This document shows, in pieces, positions 1 to 9,930 of a DNA stretch of 9,930 nt. A model generated the notes under the pieces. That model saw nothing but the letters and a program-made list of their open reading frames with translations. It was not told the origin of the DNA and searched no databases. Numbering within the stretch: position 1 is the first letter of the stretch; every line of letters starts with the position of its first letter. This stretch comes from a virus (Duplodnaviria > Heunggongvirae > Uroviricota > Caudoviricetes): the IMG/VR virus record IMGVR_UViG_2675903504_000002, positions 1 through 9,930 of that record, one strand, 5' to 3'. A program made the position numbers and the translations under genes.

Positions 1-288
1 TCGGGCGGACCAAATGATACGTCAGTGGGAGAGATCTCACTAAAAACTGGGGATAACGCCTTAAATGGCGAAGAAACGGTCTAAATAGGCTGATTCAAGG
101 CATTTACGGGAGAAAAAATCGGCTCAAACATGAAGAAATGAAATGACTGAGTCAGCCGAGAAGAATTTCCCCGCTTATTCGCACCTTCCCTAGATGACCA
201 CATTACACATCTAAAAGGTAAACTATGCGATTTCCTTAGCAAGAAGTTTGGCGATAGCATTAGCCTGAGTGTTAATGCATTAGCTTCT

Positions 289-753
289 TTGCTTGAACAG
301 GCGTGTCGAGAAAAATCCAAGGTAAAATCCGCAGATATTATTAATTTTCCTGAACTTATTTCACGAAAGGGTTTCTCATCAGAAGCATTGAATGGTGTGC
401 TTGATTCCTTGAATGCAAGTAATAGTTTAAAGCCTGATTGGGACAAAGCTAGTCCCCTATTCAATGATCTTGGCAAAACATCGCTTCAGCTCATTATCCT
501 GCAAGCCATGTTCTCACAAGTTTGCATCGACCTTAACCAAAACAAAAAAAATCCTTCGACTGTATATCTAGAATATGCAATTAGCCTTTACGATGAGGCG
601 AGTGCTCACTCGGATTTGAAATTATATCTAACTGAAACCATGTACAAAATTGATGCACTTTGTCCAGATTATGCATTGACTTTAAAGTCAGGGAAGAAAG
701 AATGCATAGTTATTTACTCAATAATCCAGAAGCTCTTAGAGGGAGGTGAATAA
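289..753 (+). CDS. Hypothetical small protein (154 aa if TTG start at 289; true start uncertain), translationally coupled to the downstream ATPase
   Basis: Frame is open from 151 to the TAA at 751-753 with no in-frame ATG before 508. Stop overlaps the next gene's ATG (TAATG, 751-755). AT-rich like the ATPase. The antisense ORF 81..476 overlaps and is judged spurious. Confidence 0.5.
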   Translation: MLEQACREKSKVKSADIINFPELISRKGFSSEALNGVLDSLNASNSLKPDWDKASPLFNDLGKTSLQLIILQAMFSQVCIDLNQNKKNPSTVYLEYAISLYDEASAHSDLKLYLTETMYKIDALCPDYALTLKSGKKECIVIYSIIQKLLEGGE

Positions 754-2405
754 TGAAAAGCATATACTTTAAAAGTGCTCATATATTATCCCTTCGCGAT
801 AAGAAAGGATTCTCCTTCAAGTTCTCACCTGATATTAATATCATTACAGGTGAGAACGACACAGGTAAGTCTAGCTTTATTAAGAGCTTATATCATACAT
901 TAGGTGCTGATGTTCGACTGGATAAAAAGTGGAAAGAAGATAACTTTGTTTCAAAAGTTGTTATTTGTGTTAATAATCGTGACTATGCGTTTCTTCGCCA
1001 CGAAAAACGTATTTCCATTTTCGATATAACAGCAGGACAAGAGCATCACTTAGTGACCTCTAGCTCTCGTGCAGAGATTGCATTAGCTGTGCGTGATGTC
1101 TTTGATTTCAATTTGGAGCTTGTGACTAAAACTAATTTGGTTCAGGGACAAGCACAACCAGCAAGTCTTTATCTCCCTTACTATATTGATCAAGATAACG
1201 GTTGGGGGAAAGTTTTAGATTCATTTAGCAGTTTGGCTATGTATGAGGACTGGCAAAAAAATATCTTGAATTTTCATACTGGTGTAAAACCAAAGGAGTA
1301 CTATACTTTACAAGGAAAGATTAATTTAATTGATTTCGATCTTGTTGAAATCCGAACGACGTTAAAAGCTCTAAAGAGAGCTAAAAAGCGATTCGAAGAG
1401 TCATTTGGAAGAGTACTTTTCGATGTGGATGTAAAATATTATGAAGAGCTGCTGGAACGTTTCCTTCGTAAGTGCCAAGACTTACATCAAGAAGAAACAG
1501 AATACAGAATTAAGCTCATAAAAATATTATCTCTACGAGATGAATTAGTAACAGAAATAGAGGAATCAAAAAGACAGCTCGATGAAAATGATATAGATTC
1601 TTTGCTACCATCGGCAGGCTTAGAAGCAAGATATGTAGTACTTGAGAATAAAGAAAAGCTATTGCAAATCATACCAAAGTTGTATGAGGAAAAATCTGTA
1701 TATGATGATCAACTCTCTAAAATTAAAGAAGATTTGAAACAGGCTATAAGCTTAAGCTCAGAACTCAAAAACATGCTTCTGGAAGTCAAAGAGCAACTGA
1801 CTCTTCAAGACGTTATTAAGTCTCAAGCAAGTAAGCAGGTTGAGGTAACTTTCGATGAGCAAATTAACGAATTACTGCTAAAAATAGGCGAATTGGATGT
1901 TTCTAGAACTCAGCTTTCAAAAGAAATAGCAAAGTTCGAAGATAAAAAGCGAGCAAAAGAAATCAATGATAAGTTTAAAGAGTCACTGAAGTTTGCGCAA
2001 ACTGAGTTAGGTATCAAAGATCCTAAAGTTGGAACTATTCTTCAATATGGTCCGATTTCTAAGAGCGAAACAGGCAGCCGTGCTCCAAGATCAATCCTGG
2101 CTTATCACTATGCTCTTCTAAAAACAATAGAAGATAAATCGACAAGTCCTATGCTTCCAGTAGTAATTGACTCGCCTAAACAACAAGATCCAGATCCGCG
2201 TACAACAAAAAAGTTATTCGATTTATGTATTAATGGTTTATCAACTAATAGCCAGCTAATTATCGGCTCAGTTTCATTTGAAAGAGAAACGAATCAGTTT
2301 AAAACACTTATTATGACTGAAAAATACAGTCTGCTAAAATCAGAGCTTTACAATCAGGTTTATCAAGAGATTATGCCTCTTTATGAACGAGCTGCGTTAT
2401 CATAA
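753..2405 (+). CDS. SMC/Rad50-like (ABC-type) ATPase with long central coiled coil, 550 aa; candidate defence ATPase of unassigned family
   Basis: SD GGAGG at 742-746, 6 nt before ATG 753. Walker A GENDTGKS at 849-872. Residues ~190-430 are K/E/L/Q-rich and heptad-like. C-terminal signature-like SETGS (2064-2078) and Walker-B-like LPVVIDSP (2154-2177). Confidence 0.8.
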   Translation: MKSIYFKSAHILSLRDKKGFSFKFSPDINIITGENDTGKSSFIKSLYHTLGADVRLDKKWKEDNFVSKVVICVNNRDYAFLRHEKRISIFDITAGQEHHLVTSSSRAEIALAVRDVFDFNLELVTKTNLVQGQAQPASLYLPYYIDQDNGWGKVLDSFSSLAMYEDWQKNILNFHTGVKPKEYYTLQGKINLIDFDLVEIRTTLKALKRAKKRFEESFGRVLFDVDVKYYEELLERFLRKCQDLHQEETEYRIKLIKILSLRDELVTEIEESKRQLDENDIDSLLPSAGLEARYVVLENKEKLLQIIPKLYEEKSVYDDQLSKIKEDLKQAISLSSELKNMLLEVKEQLTLQDVIKSQASKQVEVTFDEQINELLLKIGELDVSRTQLSKEIAKFEDKKRAKEINDKFKESLKFAQTELGIKDPKVGTILQYGPISKSETGSRAPRSILAYHYALLKTIEDKSTSPMLPVVIDSPKQQDPDPRTTKKLFDLCINGLSTNSQLIIGSVSFERETNQFKTLIMTEKYSLLKSELYNQVYQEIMPLYERAALS

Positions 2406-2435
2406 TCTGATCATTTATATGGGAACACGCTCATC

Positions 2436-2459
2436 ACTATGAGTGTGTCTCCTCATAGT
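2436..2459. other. Perfect 8-bp stem hairpin (ACTATGAG / CTCATAGT, 8-nt loop) 31 nt after the ATPase stop
   Basis: Exact inverted repeat read from the sequence. Lacks a following T-run, so not a canonical intrinsic terminator. Confidence 0.4.
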
Positions 2460-2537
2460 TACGCTAGCTATCAATTAAATTAGCCTATTCAATTGACCAG
2501 CTCTTCATTGATCAACAATAAGTGCTATTAGCTACTT

Positions 2538-2597
2538 CAGCTTTCGGCACAGAGCGGACGAGATGGCTGGTTTGAAGGTCCGCTGTGAGCGAAGAGC
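2538..2597. other. Two adjacent stem-loops in the convergent intergenic region
   Basis: CACAG(AG)CGGAC ... GTCCGCTGTG (10 bp with a 2-nt bulge, 18-nt loop), then GCGAAG-AGCGGAA-CTTCGC (6-bp stem). No adjacent U-tract on either strand. Confidence 0.4.
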
Positions 2598-2706
2598 GGA
2601 ACTTCGCGATTAATCTCGCAGTCAAATAGTTGCATTACTCACATTACGGCGTATTAATCAATGGAGAGCAGATCAATAAGAACAGAAATAAACATTCCAA
2701 GCATTA

Positions 2707-3258
2707 CTACAAGTCTGACATTAGAGCCAAACACATAATCCGTTCCCAGTGATTCACAAAAGGCGAATTATTGATTATTGTTTGAAATATAAGGTATTTA
2801 GCAGCATTTTTATCTACGGAGATTGGTAGTACTGAGTTATATAGAGCTAAAAGCACAACTAACCTCGCACCAGCTTCTTTAGAGTATCTTAAAGATAAAT
2901 CAAAATCGTTAAAATGTTTTTCCACTCTTTGTTTATGTGCATTATCCCAATCAGCAGGTGGCGAAACAAAATACTCAATAACTCCAGGCTCATCATTTTT
3001 GCCAACCAAGTATCTAGCCGATATCCACTGTTCATCATAATAACGGCTATCGTCTAAATAGGGATGTATTATCTGTTCTGCTTCATTTCTTGCAAAAGTT
3101 TCCCCTTTACCATCCATATTACAATCTCGACAAGCTGGCACAAGATTAACAGGCAATATAGAAAACTGAGGATAGTGAGCTTTAGGCAAATAATGATCTA
3201 AATTTCGAGGTCGCCCAATCCCACCACAAAATGGGCATTTTTCATTAGCAGCAGTCAT
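2707..3258 (-). CDS. HNH-family endonuclease, 183 aa
   Basis: N-terminal CPFCG...LDHYLPK...N...CRDCN pattern (about 3115..3237 on +), i.e. two CxxC pairs flanking a DH dyad as in McrA/HNH nucleases. AT-rich. No strong SD upstream of ATG 3258. Confidence 0.8.
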   Translation of the reverse strand: MTAANEKCPFCGGIGRPRNLDHYLPKAHYPQFSILPVNLVPACRDCNMDGKGETFARNEAEQIIHPYLDDSRYYDEQWISARYLVGKNDEPGVIEYFVSPPADWDNAHKQRVEKHFNDFDLSLRYSKEAGARLVVLLALYNSVLPISVDKNAAKYLIFQTIINNSPFVNHWERIMCLALMSDL

Positions 3259-3333
3259 CAGGGCATCATAAATATTTCGAGCAGGCTTTTTCTTCCCAAC
3301 AACATAATTTCCATTTATGTAAACTGATTAATG

Positions 3334-3365
3334 AAAACAATAAGTTAGAGTAAAAACAATAAGTT
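3334..3365. repeat. Tandem direct repeat AAAACAATAAGTT x2 (3334-3346, 3353-3365) between int stop and HNH start
   Basis: 13/13 identity, 19 bp period, followed by GGTGGTCAGTGGTGG just before the int stop. Confidence 0.7.
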
Positions 3366-3385
3366 GGGTTGGTGGTCAGTGGTGG

Positions 3386-4441
3386 TTATGACGGGGTAAT
3401 GCCAACCGCTGCCGCCACTTTGTCGCCACTTGGCAGCGTTGCCAGAGGATTGAAACGGAGCGCCGTTTCCAGATGATCCGGTGCCAGATGTGCGTAACGC
3501 ATAGTCATTTTTATATCGTGGTGTCCGAGAATTTTTTGTAAGGCCAGAATGTTTCCACCCGACATCATGAAGTGCGCCGCAAACGTATGGCGCAGAACGT
3601 GTGTGAGTTGACCGCGAGGGAGCACGATAGACGTTTTTTCCATTACGGATAAAAATTGAAAATAGCAGTCTGTGAAGAAATTGAATCCATCAAGCGCCAT
3701 GATCTCTTCATAAAGCTCTTTACTGATAGGGATGCTTCTGTTTTTCTTCCCCTTCGTTCTTACAAAGGTAATTCGGTATTTAGTCACCTGTGATCGGGTA
3801 AGGTTTATTGCTTCTCGCCAGCGTGCGCCTGTGCTTAAGCATATCTTGACTACCAGCGCCAGAATTGGGTCCTGACGTTTGCAATCAGCCAGCAGTTCAA
3901 CAATCTGCTCATGGGTAAGCCATGCCATCTCTTTTTCTGCGATGGTGAATTTTCGCATGTTCTCCAGTGGGTTTGGATACGACCATTCGCCCAGGCGGGA
4001 TAGTTCGCTAAAAACACTACTTAGATAGCTTTGCTCCAGGTTAATGGTGACCGGGCTGGCTCCTTTCTTCCATTTCTCGCTGAAGTAGATCTCACCGGTC
4101 AGGCGTTTATCTCGATAGTGGGCAAACATTTTAGAGGTGAGATTGGTTGCAAGAGGATTGCCTAGAGCGTCAACCATCAGCAGCAATTTGTCATAGACAT
4201 GCTGCCCAGCAGTCAGAGATTTACCATGTAATTTGAACCATAGCTCAACCACGTCTTTCAGGGTTCGACGATCCACTGATTCGCCCAGCCAGGGCTTTGA
4301 TTCGGTTTCTTCCATCGTGTGACGCTCAAAAGCCAGAGCTTCGCCTTTGGTGGCGAATTGTTTACGCACACGACGCCCACTTCGTCCGGCGGGGTAACAT
4401 TCGCAAAGCCATTTCCCTGTGGTGAGTTTTCGTACTGCCAT
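3386..4441 (-). CDS. int: Tyrosine site-specific recombinase (phage integrase, P2/186-type), 351 aa
   Basis: C-terminal catalytic region LSTGARWREA ... HVLRHTFAAHFMMSGGNILALQKILGHHDIKMTMRYAHLAP contains the R...H-x-x-R...Y signature. N-terminus MAVRKL...GRSGRRVRKQF resembles P2 Int as I recall it. Confidence 0.95.
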   Translation of the reverse strand: MAVRKLTTGKWLCECYPAGRSGRRVRKQFATKGEALAFERHTMEETESKPWLGESVDRRTLKDVVELWFKLHGKSLTAGQHVYDKLLLMVDALGNPLATNLTSKMFAHYRDKRLTGEIYFSEKWKKGASPVTINLEQSYLSSVFSELSRLGEWSYPNPLENMRKFTIAEKEMAWLTHEQIVELLADCKRQDPILALVVKICLSTGARWREAINLTRSQVTKYRITFVRTKGKKNRSIPISKELYEEIMALDGFNFFTDCYFQFLSVMEKTSIVLPRGQLTHVLRHTFAAHFMMSGGNILALQKILGHHDIKMTMRYAHLAPDHLETALRFNPLATLPSGDKVAAAVGITPS

Positions 4442-4466
4442 AAAAAAGCCCTCATATCAGAGGGCT
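4442..4466 (-). terminator. Candidate rho-independent terminator downstream of the OLD-like gene; its 3' arm contains the int Shine-Dalgarno
   Basis: Minus-strand RNA reads AGCCCUC-UGAUAU-GAGGGCU then U5-6, directly followed by the int AUG (4441). The 7-bp GC-rich stem's GAGGG lies 7 nt from the AUG. Confidence 0.5.
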
Positions 4467-4511
4467 AAATTTAACTGTATATTTGACCAGTAGTCAATGT
4501 ATGGTTTTTAC

Positions 4512-6500
4512 TTAAAAAACATTCTTATCCCCGTGGAAAAAACGTGCAACGTTCAATAGCCAGTCGGGGGTTTTTATTTCATTTGAATTTGCTAGTATTT
4601 CTAAATATTTTTCGCAAAATTCATTTTTTTTTCCTGGTAATTCGAAATAATCCTCAATAGCTTTTTTTTCTGTAATGTTAAGATTCAAAGCGCCTCCCGA
4701 TACTGAAGACTCCATTAACTGTGGGGTTTCCATAAAGGACAAACTAGTTTCTCCTTTAGTGTAAAGCATTTTCAGAGTTTCTACGTAGAAATCAGCATTA
4801 AGAGACTGCTCAATTTCTGTAGGTGGATAAACTCGATCATCAGTAACTTTAACAAGGCTTATATTAGATAAGTCTTTATCGAGCAAGAGTCTTCTTATTT
4901 TTATACTTGGTATTGTATCTGTAGCATCATATGGACTATATTTGTGATCTGTATCTAATAATAATAATACTTTTCCTGAGATTGTTGCTTTGCGATCCTC
5001 TAACGCCATAACGAGTAAATTATATATTTTTTTTACTGTAGGGGAGCCACCGACGGATAAAACTATTAGTTTCTCAATGTTTTCATAATCCAAGTGAGCG
5101 GAAATATATTTTCTATCAGTTTTTCCTTCGCACAATATCCAGTTATAATTATTTCCAGATGTTATTGAATAAACAATTGATTGTGCTAAGTCGTGATTGC
5201 TTTTCATTTCTAAAACGTCAAGGTAAGAGCCATTTGACTCTTTTGCTAGTTCCTTTAATTCATCCTTGTAGTTTTCCAGATCGAGTGCTTTGATGTATGT
5301 TTGAGAGGGGGAAATATATATGGCTGTACCTGAGCCTGTAACAGGTAAAAAACCATACCAATGAGTTGTACAAATAGTTTGTATGCCTAGGTCGCTAATT
5401 TTTTTTATTTTATCAAATTGATTAAAACATGATGTGGCATGTAAGGATAATTCAGGTTCATCAACAGCAAGAATTGTTGAGTGCTGAGATTTTTGTGGAT
5501 TATGTTTTAAGAAATTGGTAGCAAGATCTAGCAATGCTTTTCTTTTTTCTCCTGAGCTTAAATTTTGCACAGGGGTATCTTTATTAACATCATCAATATG
5601 ATGTAATATTTTATCACTAAAATATGATTCAATTATTTTAGATATCATATGACGTTGAGTGAAACTATTTTGTCGCTGAGATGGTTTTTTAAATTGATAT
5701 CGCCCCTCAAGCTTTGTAGTTAATTGTCTAATAAAATCATTTAAGTGCGAATTTATTGCTGTAATATCCTTTTTCTTAATGATTTTACTGATTTTTTGTT
5801 GGAGATTTTCACCTAATAAAGACTGTAATAAATCGCTTTCAATCCTTGAGTATTCGGATGTGGTTATTTCTGCAGGTAGGTAAATATAATTATAGATATC
5901 CTTAATTGTTATTAATAGCTTAGGTAGTATATTGTTAAAATGATATTTTTTATTATTCGTCGAACTATTTTCATTTGCGAGATCATCAATTTGCAATCGA
6001 TAATCATCTATAGATTCGAAAATTGACATGTAGGGGCGAGGAATATCATTTGCAGTTTCTTTTATTATCCCAAGGGGAATTAATAAATATTCATCTGAAG
6101 AATATTTGTATTCTAGTTGCTTCCTGTGTGATATAAATTTCTCAGCTATAGGACGTTGCAATGTATTAAAAACTTCACTTTCTATTTGCCAAGTGATATC
6201 GCTTACGATTTCTAATGCTTTGTATAGGGAATTATTTATCTTTAGCTTGTTTTTATTTATTAAATAAATTGGCACAATGAATGGTTCTCGAGTATCGAAA
6301 CCTTGACTGCGCGCTTCATTGTTGATATCAAGTCTATTGATATCAGTTTTATTTAGTACAATATCTAATGCTTGTAATATTGAGCTTTTCCCGACACCAT
6401 TTTCACCAATGAGCCAAGAGGATTTATTGTTTAAAGTGAGAGGGATATAATGTTGATTTTTGAAATTCTTGAAATTTCGTAAAATAACACCAATAATCAT
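4512..6500 (-). CDS. OLD-family ATPase-TOPRIM nuclease (class-1 OLD-like single-gene architecture; a fused PARIS AriA-AriB-like protein is an alternative), 662 aa
   Basis: N-terminal ABC/AAA_15-type Walker A LIGENGVGKSS (6384..6407). C-terminal TOPRIM motifs ILCEGKTD (5115..5138) and LLLLDTDH (DxD at 4947..4955). SD AAGGA 5-6 nt upstream of ATG 6500, 20 bp after the cI stop. Very AT-rich (about 28% G+C in a hand-counted 60-nt sample). Confidence 0.85.
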   Translation of the reverse strand: MIIGVILRNFKNFKNQHYIPLTLNNKSSWLIGENGVGKSSILQALDIVLNKTDINRLDINNEARSQGFDTREPFIVPIYLINKNKLKINNSLYKALEIVSDITWQIESEVFNTLQRPIAEKFISHRKQLEYKYSSDEYLLIPLGIIKETANDIPRPYMSIFESIDDYRLQIDDLANENSSTNNKKYHFNNILPKLLITIKDIYNYIYLPAEITTSEYSRIESDLLQSLLGENLQQKISKIIKKKDITAINSHLNDFIRQLTTKLEGRYQFKKPSQRQNSFTQRHMISKIIESYFSDKILHHIDDVNKDTPVQNLSSGEKRKALLDLATNFLKHNPQKSQHSTILAVDEPELSLHATSCFNQFDKIKKISDLGIQTICTTHWYGFLPVTGSGTAIYISPSQTYIKALDLENYKDELKELAKESNGSYLDVLEMKSNHDLAQSIVYSITSGNNYNWILCEGKTDRKYISAHLDYENIEKLIVLSVGGSPTVKKIYNLLVMALEDRKATISGKVLLLLDTDHKYSPYDATDTIPSIKIRRLLLDKDLSNISLVKVTDDRVYPPTEIEQSLNADFYVETLKMLYTKGETSLSFMETPQLMESSVSGGALNLNITEKKAIEDYFELPGKKNEFCEKYLEILANSNEIKTPDWLLNVARFFHGDKNVF

Positions 6501-6520
6501 TTTTTGTCCTTTAAAATTAA

Positions 6521-7111
6521 TTATTTACAGGTCATAATTACTTTAGCGATGATATTAACATCACTGATATTGCACTCTATTTTTTTTGATTTTGACTCTA
6601 GCATTATGCGGTTATTAGGTAACCTCATTAATTCTCGAACAGAATATATACCGTCAATGGCAATCAACCATAACCCATCATCAATCTCATCCACACCTCG
6701 TCTCACGACATAAGTTATATGCTCATGCTCAAGAGCTGAGATATCTTTTAGGTCATTTGGCAATAGTGATAAATCAAAAATTAAATAGCCATTATCAATC
6801 AGTTTGCCATCGATAATTTTCTCTCTGGTCAGGCTTACAACATGCGATTTTGCATCCACATACATGGGGCCTTCAGCTGCGGATAGCCAACGAAGTGAAA
6901 TACCTGTTTCTAACGCACATTGAATTATCCAATCAGCGGGGAATGTATCTCTCATATATCGATTAGCTAACGTGCTTTTAGAAACACCAAGATGTTCAGC
7001 CAAAGCCTGTCGTGTCGTAAAGCCATAAGCTTCGACTAATCGCTCAATCGCAGCCTTACCACCTTTATTGGGATTTATTTTGATCTCACTTGGGTACTTT
7101 GATGTTGACAT
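6521..7111 (-). CDS. cI: Phage 186-type CI immunity repressor (N-terminal HTH, C-terminal oligomerisation domain), 196 aa
   Basis: HTH-like segment GFTTRQALAEHLGVSKSTLANRY. Size and divergent position opposite the apl/cII-like genes match the phage 186 switch layout (P2 C is much smaller). Start codon overlaps the -35 of the rightward promoter. Confidence 0.8.
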   Translation of the reverse strand: MSTSKYPSEIKINPNKGGKAAIERLVEAYGFTTRQALAEHLGVSKSTLANRYMRDTFPADWIIQCALETGISLRWLSAAEGPMYVDAKSHVVSLTREKIIDGKLIDNGYLIFDLSLLPNDLKDISALEHEHITYVVRRGVDEIDDGLWLIAIDGIYSVRELMRLPNNRIMLESKSKKIECNISDVNIIAKVIMTCK

Positions 7112-7158
7112 ATCTCTTTTGCGATCCTAGTATCACTTTTGTTCCCATTTGGGTACTT
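7090..7158. promoter_or_regulatory. Two exact copies of TTGGGTACTT (7090-7099, 7149-7158) bracketing the pR-like promoter; candidate operator or regulator binding sites
   Basis: 10/10 direct repeat read from the sequence, 59 bp apart, flanking the -35/-10. Confidence 0.4.
7105..7133 (+). promoter_or_regulatory. Candidate sigma70 rightward lytic promoter (pR-like): -35 TTGACA, 17-bp spacer, -10 TAGTAT
   Basis: TTGACA at 7105-7110 and TAGTAT at 7128-7133. The -35 overlaps the cI start codon (complement of CAT at 7109-7111). Oriented toward apl/cII. Confidence 0.5.
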
Positions 7159-7206
7159 GTCACGATTACTACAGGCTCACCACAAGCCAATAGGAGATGT
7201 TGCATC

Positions 7207-7428
7207 ATGACCCCTAACATTTCAATAACTCTGAATACGCCACATGTCACAATTGAGCGTTATAGCGAACTTACTGGTCTTTCAATCGACACAATTAACG
7301 ATATGCTGGCTGACGGTCGCATCCCTCGGCATCGCCTTCGGAAAGACAAGAAAAGAGAAAAGGTGATGATCAACCTTGCTGCTCTTACCGTTGATGCACT
7401 TACTGATTGCAATGTTGTATTCAACTAG
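7207..7428 (+). CDS. apl: Apl/Cox-type HTH excisionase / transcriptional regulator, 73 aa
   Basis: SD AGGAG at 7192-7196, 10 nt before ATG 7207. The track's 7090 start runs through the promoter and across the cI start, so it is implausible. HTH-like [24 protein letters not shown]. First gene of the rightward operon, divergent from cI. Confidence 0.6.
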
Positions 7429-7460
7429 TTCCATTTTGGGATACATCAGGGGTGTCGACC

Positions 7461-7970
7461 ATGTTTGATTACCAAGTTTCCAAACATCCACATTTTGATG
7501 AAGCCTGTCGTGCATTCGCACTGCGCCACAACCTGGTGCAACTGGCAGAACGTGCAGGCATGAATGTGCAGATTCTGCGGAACAAGCTGAACCCAGCTCA
7601 ACCTCATTTATTAACCGCACCAGATATCTGGCTACTTACCGATCTGACTGAAGATTCAACGCTGGTAGACGGTTTTCTGGCACAGATTCATTGTCTGCCA
7701 TGTGTACCGATTAATGAGGTGGCAAAAGAGAAACTGCCACATTACGTCATGAGTGCAACCGCAGAGATCGGGCGTGTTGCTGCAGGTGCGGTATCTGGCG
7801 ATGTAAAAACCAGTGCAGGTCGTCGTAATGCTATCAGCAGCATTAACTCTGTAACACGACTGATGGCGTTGGCTGCTGTTTCATTGCAGGCCCGTTTACA
7901 GGCTAACCCTGCGATGGCGAGTGCAGTTGATACCGTGGCTGGCCTCGGTGCTTCATTCGGTTTGCTGTGA
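7461..7970 (+). CDS. cII: Phage 186-type CII lysogeny-establishment activator, 169 aa
   Basis: Starts at internal ATG 7461 ([19 protein letters not shown]...); the upstream extension from 7407 overlaps apl. HTH-like [18 protein letters not shown]. Length and position after apl match 186 CII. Confidence 0.8.
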
Positions 7971-7977
7971 GGTACTT

Positions 7978-8274
7978 ATGCTGACGAAAGAACCATCATT
8001 TGCATCGCTGCTGGTAAAGCAAAGCCCGGCAATGCACTACGGTCACGGCTGGATCATGGGTGAGGATGGAAAACGCTGGCATCCATGTCATTCACAAGAT
8101 GAATTGCTGTCTGAATTGACCACGAGGAAACGGAGAAAGTCAAAATGTATGCAGCGGAAAGTGAAGTGGTTTATCAGTTTCGTTACAGAGGGGAGAGTTA
8201 TTCAGTACCTGAAGATGATTTGCTCTGTTGTTATCCGTCGTTGTCGGGCGATGGCAGTTACTTTTTCACGCTAA
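7978..8274 (+). CDS. Hypothetical early protein (98 aa as drawn; 3' portion doubtful)
   Basis: ATG 7978 is 5 nt after a GAGG overlapping the cII stop. The last ~40 codons overlap the next ORF and read like out-of-frame sequence (C/R/W-rich). Confidence 0.45.
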   Translation: MLTKEPSFASLLVKQSPAMHYGHGWIMGEDGKRWHPCHSQDELLSELTTRKRRKSKCMQRKVKWFISFVTEGRVIQYLKMICSVVIRRCRAMAVTFSR

Positions 8275-8369
8275 AAGATGGGACGTTTTTACGGGGAGAG
8301 CAGGTTAAAGAGACGATACGAAAAAATGTATCTCCTCTTGAACGTTACCGTAATAACAAACAACGATAG
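8145..8369 (+). CDS. Hypothetical early protein, 74 aa
   Basis: SD GGAG at 8132-8135, 9 nt before ATG 8145. Ordinary amino-acid composition. Overlaps the 3' end of the previous ORF in a different frame. Confidence 0.5.
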   Translation: MYAAESEVVYQFRYRGESYSVPEDDLLCCYPSLSGDGSYFFTLKDGTFLRGEQVKETIRKNVSPLERYRNNKQR

Positions 8370-8391
8370 TTGCGTTTTGGGGATATGAATT

Positions 8392-8733
8392 ATGGCAATT
8401 AATGGCGCTGCGGCGACTGTTCCATTAAGCCCCGGTGAACGCCTGAATGGACTTAATCACATTGCGGAGCTAAGGGCGAAAGTTTTTGGCCTGAATATTG
8501 AGTCAGAGCTTGAGCGGTTTATTAAAGATATGCGTGATCCACGGGATATCAATAACGAACAAAATAAACGGGCACTGGCTGCTATATTCTTTATGGCAAA
8601 AATTCCAGCTGAACGTCATAGCATCAGCATTAATGAGCTGACCACTGACGAAAAGCGGGAGTTGATTAAAGCAATGAATCATTTTCGTGCAGTGGTGAGC
8701 TTATTTCCCAGACGGCTAACCATGCCGAATTAA
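8392..8733 (+). CDS. Hypothetical phage early protein, 113 aa
   Basis: ORF with G-rich SD-like GGGGA at 8379-8383. Co-directional with the early operon; no motif recognised. Confidence 0.6.
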   Translation: MAINGAAATVPLSPGERLNGLNHIAELRAKVFGLNIESELERFIKDMRDPRDINNEQNKRALAAIFFMAKIPAERHSISINELTTDEKRELIKAMNHFRAVVSLFPRRLTMPN

Positions 8734-8800
8734 CCAACTAATGAAATTAATGGCGTAAACCCGCCGGGTATCCCTTTATCTAAATTCAGGAGAATTGATT

Positions 8801-9034
8801 ATGCGTAATATTGAAACCCTCACGACTAAAACCGGACCGGATGATGCAGGGCTTAATATTTTACTGACAGAGGCTCGTCTGGAAGAACGCCGGGCAAGGG
8901 CTGAAGCAATGGCAGCTCGCCTTGATAGCCTGGCGTGTCATATCACATCCCGCCAGCTAAACCATGTCGAAGCAGCAGAACTGCTGCGTGTGACCGCTGA
9001 AGCAATCCAGAACGAAGCGCAGGAGATCCACTGA
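8801..9034 (+). CDS. Hypothetical phage protein, 77 aa
   Basis: SD AGGAG at 8788-8792, 8 nt before ATG 8801 (preferred over the TTG at 8795). Stop overlaps the start of the next gene (TGATG at 9032-9036). Confidence 0.6.
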   Translation: MRNIETLTTKTGPDDAGLNILLTEARLEERRARAEAMAARLDSLACHITSRQLNHVEAAELLRVTAEAIQNEAQEIH

Positions 9035-9261
9035 TGGCTGATGCAATGGATCTCGTACAGCAGCGAGTTGAAGAAGAACGCCAGCGTCATATCCGTGCTG
9101 CCCGTGCCAAAACGCCGGGCGTGTCCCGCGTGCTTTGCGTTGAGTGTGAAGCGCCAATTCCGCCAGCACGCCGCCGTGCCATTCCGGGTGTGCAACTTTG
9201 CATTACCTGTCAGGAAATCGCAGAGCTGAAAGGCAAACATTACAACGGAGGTGCTGTATGA
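9034..9261 (+). CDS. TraR/DksA-family C4 zinc-finger protein (likely RNA polymerase secondary-channel regulator), 75 aa
   Basis: CVECEAPIPPARRRAIPGVQLCITCQ gives two CxxC pairs with TraR-like spacing and conserved PGV. SD AGGAG at 9021-9025. Stop overlaps the dam start. Confidence 0.85.
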   Translation: MADAMDLVQQRVEEERQRHIRAARAKTPGVSRVLCVECEAPIPPARRRAIPGVQLCITCQEIAELKGKHYNGGAV

Positions 9262-9930
9262 GCACCATCCTGAAATGGGCGGGAAATAAAACCGCCATTA
9301 TGTCCGAACTGAAAAAACATCTTCCTGCTGGTCCGCGACTGGTTGAACCTTTCGCGGGTTCCTGTGCAGTGATGATGGAGACGGATTACCCCAGCTATCT
9401 TGTTGCGGATATTAATCCTGATTTAATCAACCTCTATAAAAAGGTTGCTGCTGATTGTGAGGCGTTTATATCTCGTGCCAGAGCTTTATTTGAGGAAGCA
9501 AACAGAGAGGTGGCTTATTACAACATAAGGCAGGAGTTTAATTACTCCACTGAAATTACTGATTTCATGAAAGCGGTATATTTTCTGTATCTCAATCGTC
9601 ATGGTTACCGTGGGTTATGTCGTTATAACAAGAGCGAGCATTTCAACATTCCATACGGTAATTATAAAAATCCGTATTTCCCTGAAAAAGAAATTCGCGC
9701 ATTTGCAGAGAAAGCCCAGCGAGCAACGTTTATCTGCGCCAGCTTTGATGAAACGCTGGCGATGCTGCAGGTGGGGGATGTGGTGTATTGCGATCCGCCT
9801 TATGACGGTACGTTTTCCGGCTATCACACTGATGGTTTCACTGAAGATGACCAGTATCACCTGGCATCTGTTCTTGAATATCGATCATCAGAAGGTCATC
9901 CAGTCATTGTTTCTAAGGAAGGTGCGAATA
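9258..9930 (+). CDS. dam: DNA adenine (GATC-type, Dam-family) N6-methyltransferase, 3' end truncated by the window edge
   Basis: SD GGAGG at 9247-9251. N-terminal LKWAGNK and catalytic DPPY (9792..9803). Close resemblance to E. coli Dam along the whole visible length ([31 protein letters not shown]). No stop before 9930. Confidence 0.9.

Follow-up and report, generated by a model that had tools for sequence, protein, structure and literature searches.

Genomic Context and Identity of the ATPase

The window analyzed here is the whole 9,930-nt stretch (positions 1 to 9,930) of the IMG/VR virus record IMGVR_UViG_2675903504_000002. Its left part carries an AT-rich block (guanine-plus-cytosine content, GC, of 0.33-0.38 over positions 500..2500, compared with 0.44-0.47 in the integrase gene further downstream), in which two open reading frames (ORFs) follow one another on the plus strand: a small ORF at 289..753, and an ORF of 550 amino acids (aa) at 753..2405. 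The TAA stop of the former overlaps the ATG of the latter (gaaTAATGaaa, 750-755), and a Shine-Dalgarno sequence, GAGGGAGG, is located just 5' of this ATG. The original prediction, made from the sequence alone, had described this pair as an uncharacterized candidate defense module that could not be placed in a named family; both ORFs, their overlap, and the AT-rich setting are all present in the sequence, while the placement is revised here. Positions 190..2405 very probably represent an inactivated type I Lamassu operon, lmuA-lmuB, of an Escherichia coli genomic island.

The 550-aa protein (753..2405, plus strand) is an intact LmuB of Lamassu type I, i.e., the SMC/Rad50-like ABC ATPase that is the DNA-end sensor of these systems. 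It matches the existing PADLOC LmuB model (PDLC00255) end to end, with 1013 bits over positions 1-549 of 550, and thus is neither uncharacterized nor unplaceable. A profile generated from an alignment of LmuB with its homologues (20 sequences, down to 38% identity) matches the entry "Lamassu protein LmuB" in the PDB (9ux7_A; E = 3.6e-24, residues 9-536 against 6-555), and the next matches of this profile are Rad50 P-loops at 0.002. The AlphaFold2 model (predicted local distance difference test score of 80, predicted template modeling score of 0.69) combines a split ABC head with a helical arm; a Foldseek search of the PDB with this model ranks 9ux7_A first (type I LmuAB-DNA, 2.2e-22), then 9uxh_F (type II LmuACB, 2.3e-15) and 9nyg_B, with Rad50, SMC, MukB, JetC, and AriA behind the Lamassu structures. 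The earlier suggestion of an SMC-like ATPase reminiscent of Lamassu LmuB is therefore supported by model, profile, and fold, and the confident match is to a known system with the anti-phage role that had been guessed. Searches of Pfam and NCBIfam with the ATPase returned sub-threshold P-loop matches only (AAA_15, SMC_N, RecF, Rad50), and single-sequence phmmer searches of the PDB gave no match for LmuB or LmuA; among the sequence searches, 9ux7 was reached only by the family profile.

The Walker A head, the coiled-coil middle, and the ABC-type C-terminal lobe previously attributed to this protein are all seen in the homologue alignment and the AlphaFold2 model. In the Walker A motif, GENDTGKS (aa 33-40; 849..872, plus strand), residues G33, N35, D36, G38, K39, and S40 are invariant in the 20 homologues, and further invariant motifs are YIDQDxGW (144-151), TGSRxPR (440-446), and PxVIDSPKQQDxD (469-481). 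The last of these is a deviant Walker B region, PVVIDSPKQQDPD (2157..2195, plus strand; P469, V471, and D473-D479 invariant), which has Ser in place of the usual catalytic Glu, and its D-S aligns with the D-S in PFCMDSFIKNE of the 9ux7 LmuB. In the secondary structure of the model, an antiparallel coiled-coil arm occupies approximately aa 181-418 (1293..2006, plus strand); its helices are broken at 219-226 and 349-350, where the arm is kinked, and its apex falls at 279-289. A CxxC zinc hook is absent from this LmuB, in which cysteines occur only at positions 72, 241, and 492.

Among 5426 complete E. coli genomes, the lmuB gene is present in only ∼20, always in islands and always paired with a gene for a Cap4 nuclease, and the defense-island context proposed earlier is borne out. 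Beyond E. coli, LmuB is most similar to proteins of Vibrio parahaemolyticus and further Vibrio, at 91% identity, followed by those of Photorhabdus and Aeromonas. The Vibrio relatives at 91% identity, together with the low GC, fit horizontal acquisition of the module, and these sequence features point to a recent transfer.

The lmuA Remnant

The small ORF encodes the C-terminal part of LmuA, the Lamassu effector, by which LmuA is anchored to LmuB, and is not a separate, translationally coupled partner gene as had been proposed, because its matches cover only C-terminal positions of the LmuA model and lengthen when the frame is extended upstream. The ORF at 289..753 aligns with positions 207-360 of the 361 positions of the PADLOC LmuA model PDLC00243 (5.5e-71), and the same frame extended to 151-753 aligns with positions 173-360 (2.3e-90). 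This frame is open from 151, where it reads out of the end of an insertion sequence (IS) of the IS5 type, and the homology spans 190 to 753. The lmuA 3' remnant is hence assigned to 190..753 (plus strand; codons 175-361 and the stop), and consists of the C-terminal anchor domain without the Cap4 nuclease core. No start codon is found in the remnant frame before residue 75 except the TTG at 289, which has no evident ribosome-binding site. Pfam and NCBIfam searches with the small ORF gave no match.

The intact form of this gene is available from E. coli strain PSS-13, from which the remnant differs by 1 nt. The 361-aa LmuA of PSS-13 matches the LmuA model end to end and contains a Pfam Cap4_nuclease domain (9e-51, aa 15-217). 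Alignment of 20 LmuA homologues identified a near-invariant nuclease core, E50-Y-H-D-D54 and Q71-x-K73, which lies wholly in the part missing from the window. Most of 86 LmuA homologues obtained from databases are ∼355-365 aa in length, and 86 of 86 carry PF14130; judged from these sequences, the LmuA family has no naturally short form. An effector had been expected upstream if the ATPase were Lamassu-like, and the upstream gene is indeed lmuA, with its nuclease half removed by IS5.

The IS5 Junction

The first 189 bp of the window (1..189, plus strand) are the terminal 189 bp of IS5, including the last 43 nt of the transposase coding sequence, which is oriented towards lmuB, and the terminal inverted repeat TTCGCACCTTCC at the IS5 end (178-189, plus strand). 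This region had been described as stop-interrupted sequence, and while it is correct that no intact effector gene is located there, the sequence has a clear identity: in a megablast search of the complete E. coli genomes, window positions 1..188 occur in 3079 of 5426 and are annotated as IS5 family transposase, whereas positions 189..3314 are a rare island segment. The CTAG at 190-193 (plus strand) is a copy of the IS5 target site, and alignment to the intact lmuA places the insertion point after codon 174. The uninterrupted gene in PSS-13 contains a single CTAG at the target (AAGC-CTAG-ATGACC). IS5 prefers YTAR targets.

The genome closest to the window is that of strain E3, which has an identical IS5 junction and shows 99.9% identity across 1..3314. 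In this strain, the 1194-bp IS5 has the inverted repeat GGAAGGTGCGAA at both ends and carries an annotated IS5 transposase. The terminal inverted repeat, the transposase, and the 4-bp target duplication of the CTAG type that characterize an IS5 insertion are all present, the last two having been read in E3. The 5' half of lmuA does not occur within 9 kb upstream of the IS5 in E3; a genome-wide search located it 14.6 kb away, beside a second IS5 that has the same orientation as the first.

The 14.6-kb segment bounded by the two directly oriented IS5 copies in E3 (745-15372 of the extracted locus L005; about 3713244-3727871 of NZ_CM130010.1) harbors ttrRSBCA (the tetrathionate respiration cluster) and fumD, along with genes for a Dyp peroxidase and a formate dehydrogenase and copies of IS1. 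On its outer sides, this insert has a CTAG at either end, as predicted by transposition of an IS5-bounded composite, although recombination after the insertion of one IS5 would leave an identical CTAG pattern. From its arrangement, the E3 segment looks like an IS5 composite transposon carrying the ttr genes.

Intact Relatives and Erosion in Other Strains

In PSS-13 and five other E. coli genomes, an orthologous locus that is 99.5-99.7% identical encodes an intact, 361-aa LmuA. The order of this locus is tRNA-Thr, a hypothetical gene, a gene for a DUF4297 protein of 361 aa, the gene for the 550-aa protein, a gene for an HNH protein of 285 aa (reverse), a gene for an AAA ATPase of 505 aa (reverse), HigA, and conjugative-element remnants; the island site is the tRNA-Thr, next to proA. 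In PSS-13, the intact lmuAB operon is located at 3659368-3662105 of NZ_AP027704.1. The LmuB proteins of the window and of PSS-13 differ at two amino acids.

Further losses have taken place in strains that share the split lmuA. In C10, an IS1 cuts lmuB after ∼184 codons (3289-5055 of its locus L008), and in APEC_AN-25 an internal deletion fuses the lmuA stub to the 3' end of lmuB (3267-3779 of its locus L009). An IS3 interrupts lmuB in MS 115-1, where lmuA is not split in the manner of the window. With lmuB still intact, the window copy seems to stand early in the decay seen in this set of sequences.

Comparison With Known Systems

The nearest characterized counterpart is BcLmuAB, the type I system of Bacillus cellulasensis (PDB 9ux7/9ux8; 10.1101/2025.06.23.660979). 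Both are two-gene lmuA-lmuB operons lacking lmuC, in both (for E. coli, in the intact form) LmuA has an N-terminal Cap4 nuclease and a C-terminal anchor, and both LmuB proteins are ∼550-560 aa in length with a Walker A motif, a deviant Walker B motif that reads D-S in each of them, and a coiled coil with kinks. These kinks are at 210-225/351-357 in BcLmuB, against breaks at 219-226 and 349-350 in the E. coli protein. Walker B has been described as "naturally deviant" in BcLmuB and in the Vibrio cholerae LmuB (VcLmuB), with ATP hydrolysis retained (10.1101/2025.06.23.660979). The two systems differ in that only ∼18% of residues are identical between the LmuB proteins, that lmuA is split by IS5 in the window, and that BcLmuB has a CQYC hook where the E. 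coli/Vibrio clade has ARY and no CxxC; this clade keeps an invariant Tyr (Y294) at the CQYC position. LmuB clades without a hook, including Vc-Cap4, have already been described (PMC12663957).

VcLmuACB, or DdmABC, the type II system of Vibrio cholerae (PDB 9uxh, 9nyg), likewise combines a Cap4-nuclease LmuA with a short LmuB that has no zinc hook, and it also senses DNA ends and releases LmuA, which forms tetramers. In contrast to the window, it requires a third protein, LmuC. No lmuC candidate was found when this gene was sought in the window: lmuA and lmuB overlap, and there is no plus-strand ORF of at least 60 aa between 2405 and the HNH gene. The locus is thus not type II, and the best PADLOC models for both LmuB and LmuA are those of the two-gene type and not of LmuA-LmuC-LmuB. 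The LmuB match, the nucleotide-binding motifs, and the lack of lmuC are those of Lamassu type I; a complete upstream LmuA effector gene is missing from the window and is present at the orthologous locus of PSS-13 and the five other genomes. The window therefore holds a disrupted member of Lamassu type I, a system that is already known and catalogued, from a subfamily with its own PADLOC models.

A natural Lamassu form without an effector domain has been reported as clade O, a short Lamassu in which LmuA seems to have lost this domain and which comprises >100 sequences from >40 species (PMC12663957). The window resembles clade O in having an effector-less LmuA beside a full LmuB. Clade O, however, is old and widespread and has LmuC, whereas the loss in the window stems from a recent IS5 insertion found in a few near-identical genomes. 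Rad50/SbcC and SMC ATPases share the split ABC head and the long antiparallel coiled coil with LmuB, which has been reported as derived from SbcC (PMC12663957). They differ from it in that their sequence matches are limited to the P-loop and fall below cut-offs, and in that LmuB has no Mre11/SbcD partner and is sporadic and island-borne.

Proposed Mechanism and Alternative Explanations

Structural and functional work on BcLmuAB and VcLmuACB has shown that a single LmuA monomer is held by its C-terminal domain on the distal coiled coil of the LmuB dimer with its nuclease inactive, and that binding of double-stranded DNA ends and ATP turnover release LmuA, the tetramers of which cleave DNA and abort infection (10.1101/2025.06.23.660979; PMC12663957). 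BcLmuAB protects E. coli against phage T1, and the nuclease-site mutant K59A of BcLmuA loses defense (10.1101/2025.06.23.660979). By analogy, the intact E. coli system would comprise a 361-aa LmuA, with an N-terminal Cap4/PD-(D/E)xK double-stranded DNA nuclease domain and a C-terminal anchor domain, that would be kept inactive as a monomer on the distal coiled coil of the LmuB dimer. The Rad50/SbcC-like LmuB would sense DNA ends arising from phage replication, whereupon LmuA would be freed, tetramerize, and degrade DNA, such that infection would be aborted. In the window, the split of lmuA after codon 174 leaves only the anchor domain joined to an intact lmuB, and the operon can make at most LmuB and a nuclease-less stub and is predicted to confer no defense. 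We infer that the function of this operon has been lost, which is supported by the further loss of lmuB in strains sharing the split lmuA.

The principal alternative is a nuclease-less but functional two-gene module made up of the 154-aa ORF and LmuB, acting either as an effector-less sensor or decoy or with an effector encoded elsewhere. The intact lmuB, the preserved stop/start overlap and Shine-Dalgarno sequence, the natural precedent of clade O (PMC12663957), and the fact that the Prokaryotic Genome Annotation Pipeline (PGAP) annotates a protein at the small ORF in both E3 and C10 would agree with such a module. It is nonetheless very unlikely: the IS5 truncation occurs in only a handful of near-identical E. 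coli genomes, with the other half of lmuA still 14.6 kb away; the remnant is 1 nt from the intact lmuA, which leaves no time for selection; the sole start is the TTG at 289 with no ribosome-binding site; sister strains go on to destroy lmuB; and clade O keeps LmuC, which is absent from the window. Similarly improbable is the related idea that stub and LmuB are kept and expressed (e.g., by read-through from IS5) to bind DNA ends without an effector, to serve as a decoy, or to modulate other defenses, because the IS origin is recent and sister strains erode the operon further; if true, this would represent a recent counterpart, created by an IS, of the natural Lamassu clade that has no effector domain.

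There is even less reason to regard the HNH endonuclease encoded next to lmuB as the effector of a system with three genes, those for the stub, the ATPase, and the HNH protein, or, as had been entertained earlier, as part of the module. The genes do lie side by side within one AT-rich block in at least six E. coli genomes, but the HNH gene runs convergently to lmuB and has a 1-nt overlap with the gene for its own PtuA-like ATPase of 505 aa, and the window copy lacks its first ∼84 codons and this partner. Furthermore, the HNH/ATPase pair is found without lmuAB at another chromosomal site, beside icd, and lmuAB is found elsewhere without the HNH gene; given this independent distribution of the two pairs, the HNH gene was rejected as the Lamassu effector. 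Least probable of all, and barely conceivable, is a housekeeping role for the ATPase as an SMC/RecN/RecF/SbcC paralogue in chromosome maintenance or repair. Its N-terminal P-loop does show weak matches to SMC_N, RecF, Rad50, and an archaeal SMC-related protein (ASRP), and Rad50 and SMC structures rank after Lamassu in the fold search. These matches are confined to the Walker A/P-loop region and fall far below the curated cut-offs of the family models (SMC_N, 20.4 bits against 40; RecF, 17 against 172; Rad50_Sulf, 13.9 against 1000; ASRP, 26 against 300), which led to rejection of this candidate; the best full-length matches are LmuB models and structures, and the sporadic, island-borne gene is always paired with a Cap4-nuclease gene.

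Several observations weigh against the interpretation as an inactivated Lamassu operon. Protection from phage is known from BcLmuAB, at only ∼18% residue identity to the LmuB of this gammaproteobacterial subfamily, and its extension to the E. coli system would be by analogy. The LmuA family profile reached no solved LmuA in the PDB, with a weak match (0.089) to an "Anti-bacteriophage protein A." The lmuB gene is intact (two amino acid changes), and transcription may read through into it from the IS5 transposase gene, which has the same orientation; this could allow residual activity of LmuB and the stub. Finally, the window begins inside the right-hand IS5, and the presence of the same 14.6-kb insert in its genome would be a picture borrowed from E3. 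A promoter and terminator scan yielded counts not above those of shuffled sequence and was not used.

With inactivation of a type I Lamassu operon as the preferred explanation, the locus carries a lesson for annotation: a "small coupled ORF + orphan ATPase" can turn out to be what remains of a known operon, and gene fragments should be tested against full-length profiles before a system is called new.

The HNH Gene and the Prophage

Between lmuB and the integrase gene lies a truncated HNH endonuclease gene (2707..3314, minus strand; codons ∼85-285 of 285), which is the B component of a separate, Septu-like PtuA/HNH pair (PADLOC PDC-M01). The window protein matches the PDC-M01B model PDLC04256 over positions 101-277 of 285. 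In PSS-13 and E3, an intact 285-aa HNH gene is found beside the gene for the 505-aa ATPase, which scores 800 bits against the PtuA model PDLC00282 and 718 bits against PDC-M01A, and strain MCJCHV-1 has the PtuA-like/HNH pair by itself, beside icd. The window copy of the HNH gene is incomplete and has no ATPase gene of this pair next to it, because the prophage starts at 3315. The spacer between lmuB and the HNH gene contains an imperfect 24-nt inverted repeat, identified by repeat search (2536..2601), and homology to loci in other contexts that contain lmuAB only ends at 2529-2601, near this repeat, which could act as a terminator or mark the boundary of a module.

The homology to the island ends at 3314 and that to the prophage begins at 3311. 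The HNH sequence at the junction, AACATAATTTCCAT (3301..3314), is a candidate secondary bacterial attachment site (attB) with a 10/14 match to the att core AACAAAAAACCCAT. In CE0021a, the same prophage occupies its normal site between rcdA and ybjL, with this core on either side as a 14-bp direct repeat (686-699 and 35361-35374 of its locus L004), and the window becomes identical to the phage arm directly after the att-core position. These sequences fit an integrase-mediated insertion of the prophage into the HNH gene at a secondary att site, and this insertion would have split the Septu-like PtuA/HNH system. The HNH/prophage junction itself occurs in no complete E. coli genome of the collection. 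The original prediction had placed the ATPase next to the integrase; an integrase is indeed nearby, but the truncated HNH gene intervenes and the prophage boundary is at 3314/3315, the integrase lying near the Lamassu genes because the prophage inserted into the HNH gene. The window is thereby a compact example of defense-island decay, with one system split by an IS5-bounded insert and its neighbor by a prophage at a secondary att site.

The remainder of the window (3315..9930) is the left arm of a 186/P2-like prophage, with Pfam domains Int_N/Phage_integrase, Phage_CI_repr, and Phage_CI_C. This arm shares 99.9% identity with the CE0021a prophage and 95.5% with phage vB_EcoM-813R9 and with Klebsiella phage 4LV2017. 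It includes int (3386..4441, minus strand) and cI (6521..7111, minus strand), after which early genes follow on the plus strand. Between int and cI, a gene for a 662-aa ABC-type ATPase is encoded (4512..6500, minus strand). This protein matches AAA_15 (1e-20), has partial PADLOC matches to AriA (2e-23) and Old (1.5e-17), and has a weak OLD-like TOPRIM match at aa 454-496, while its C-terminal ∼160 aa are without assignment. No sequence match was found for it in the PDB, and its PHROG families are those of unknown function. On these sequence matches, the 662-aa ATPase is likely a phage-carried defense gene of an undescribed subtype, and it is possibly of more interest than the Lamassu finding.

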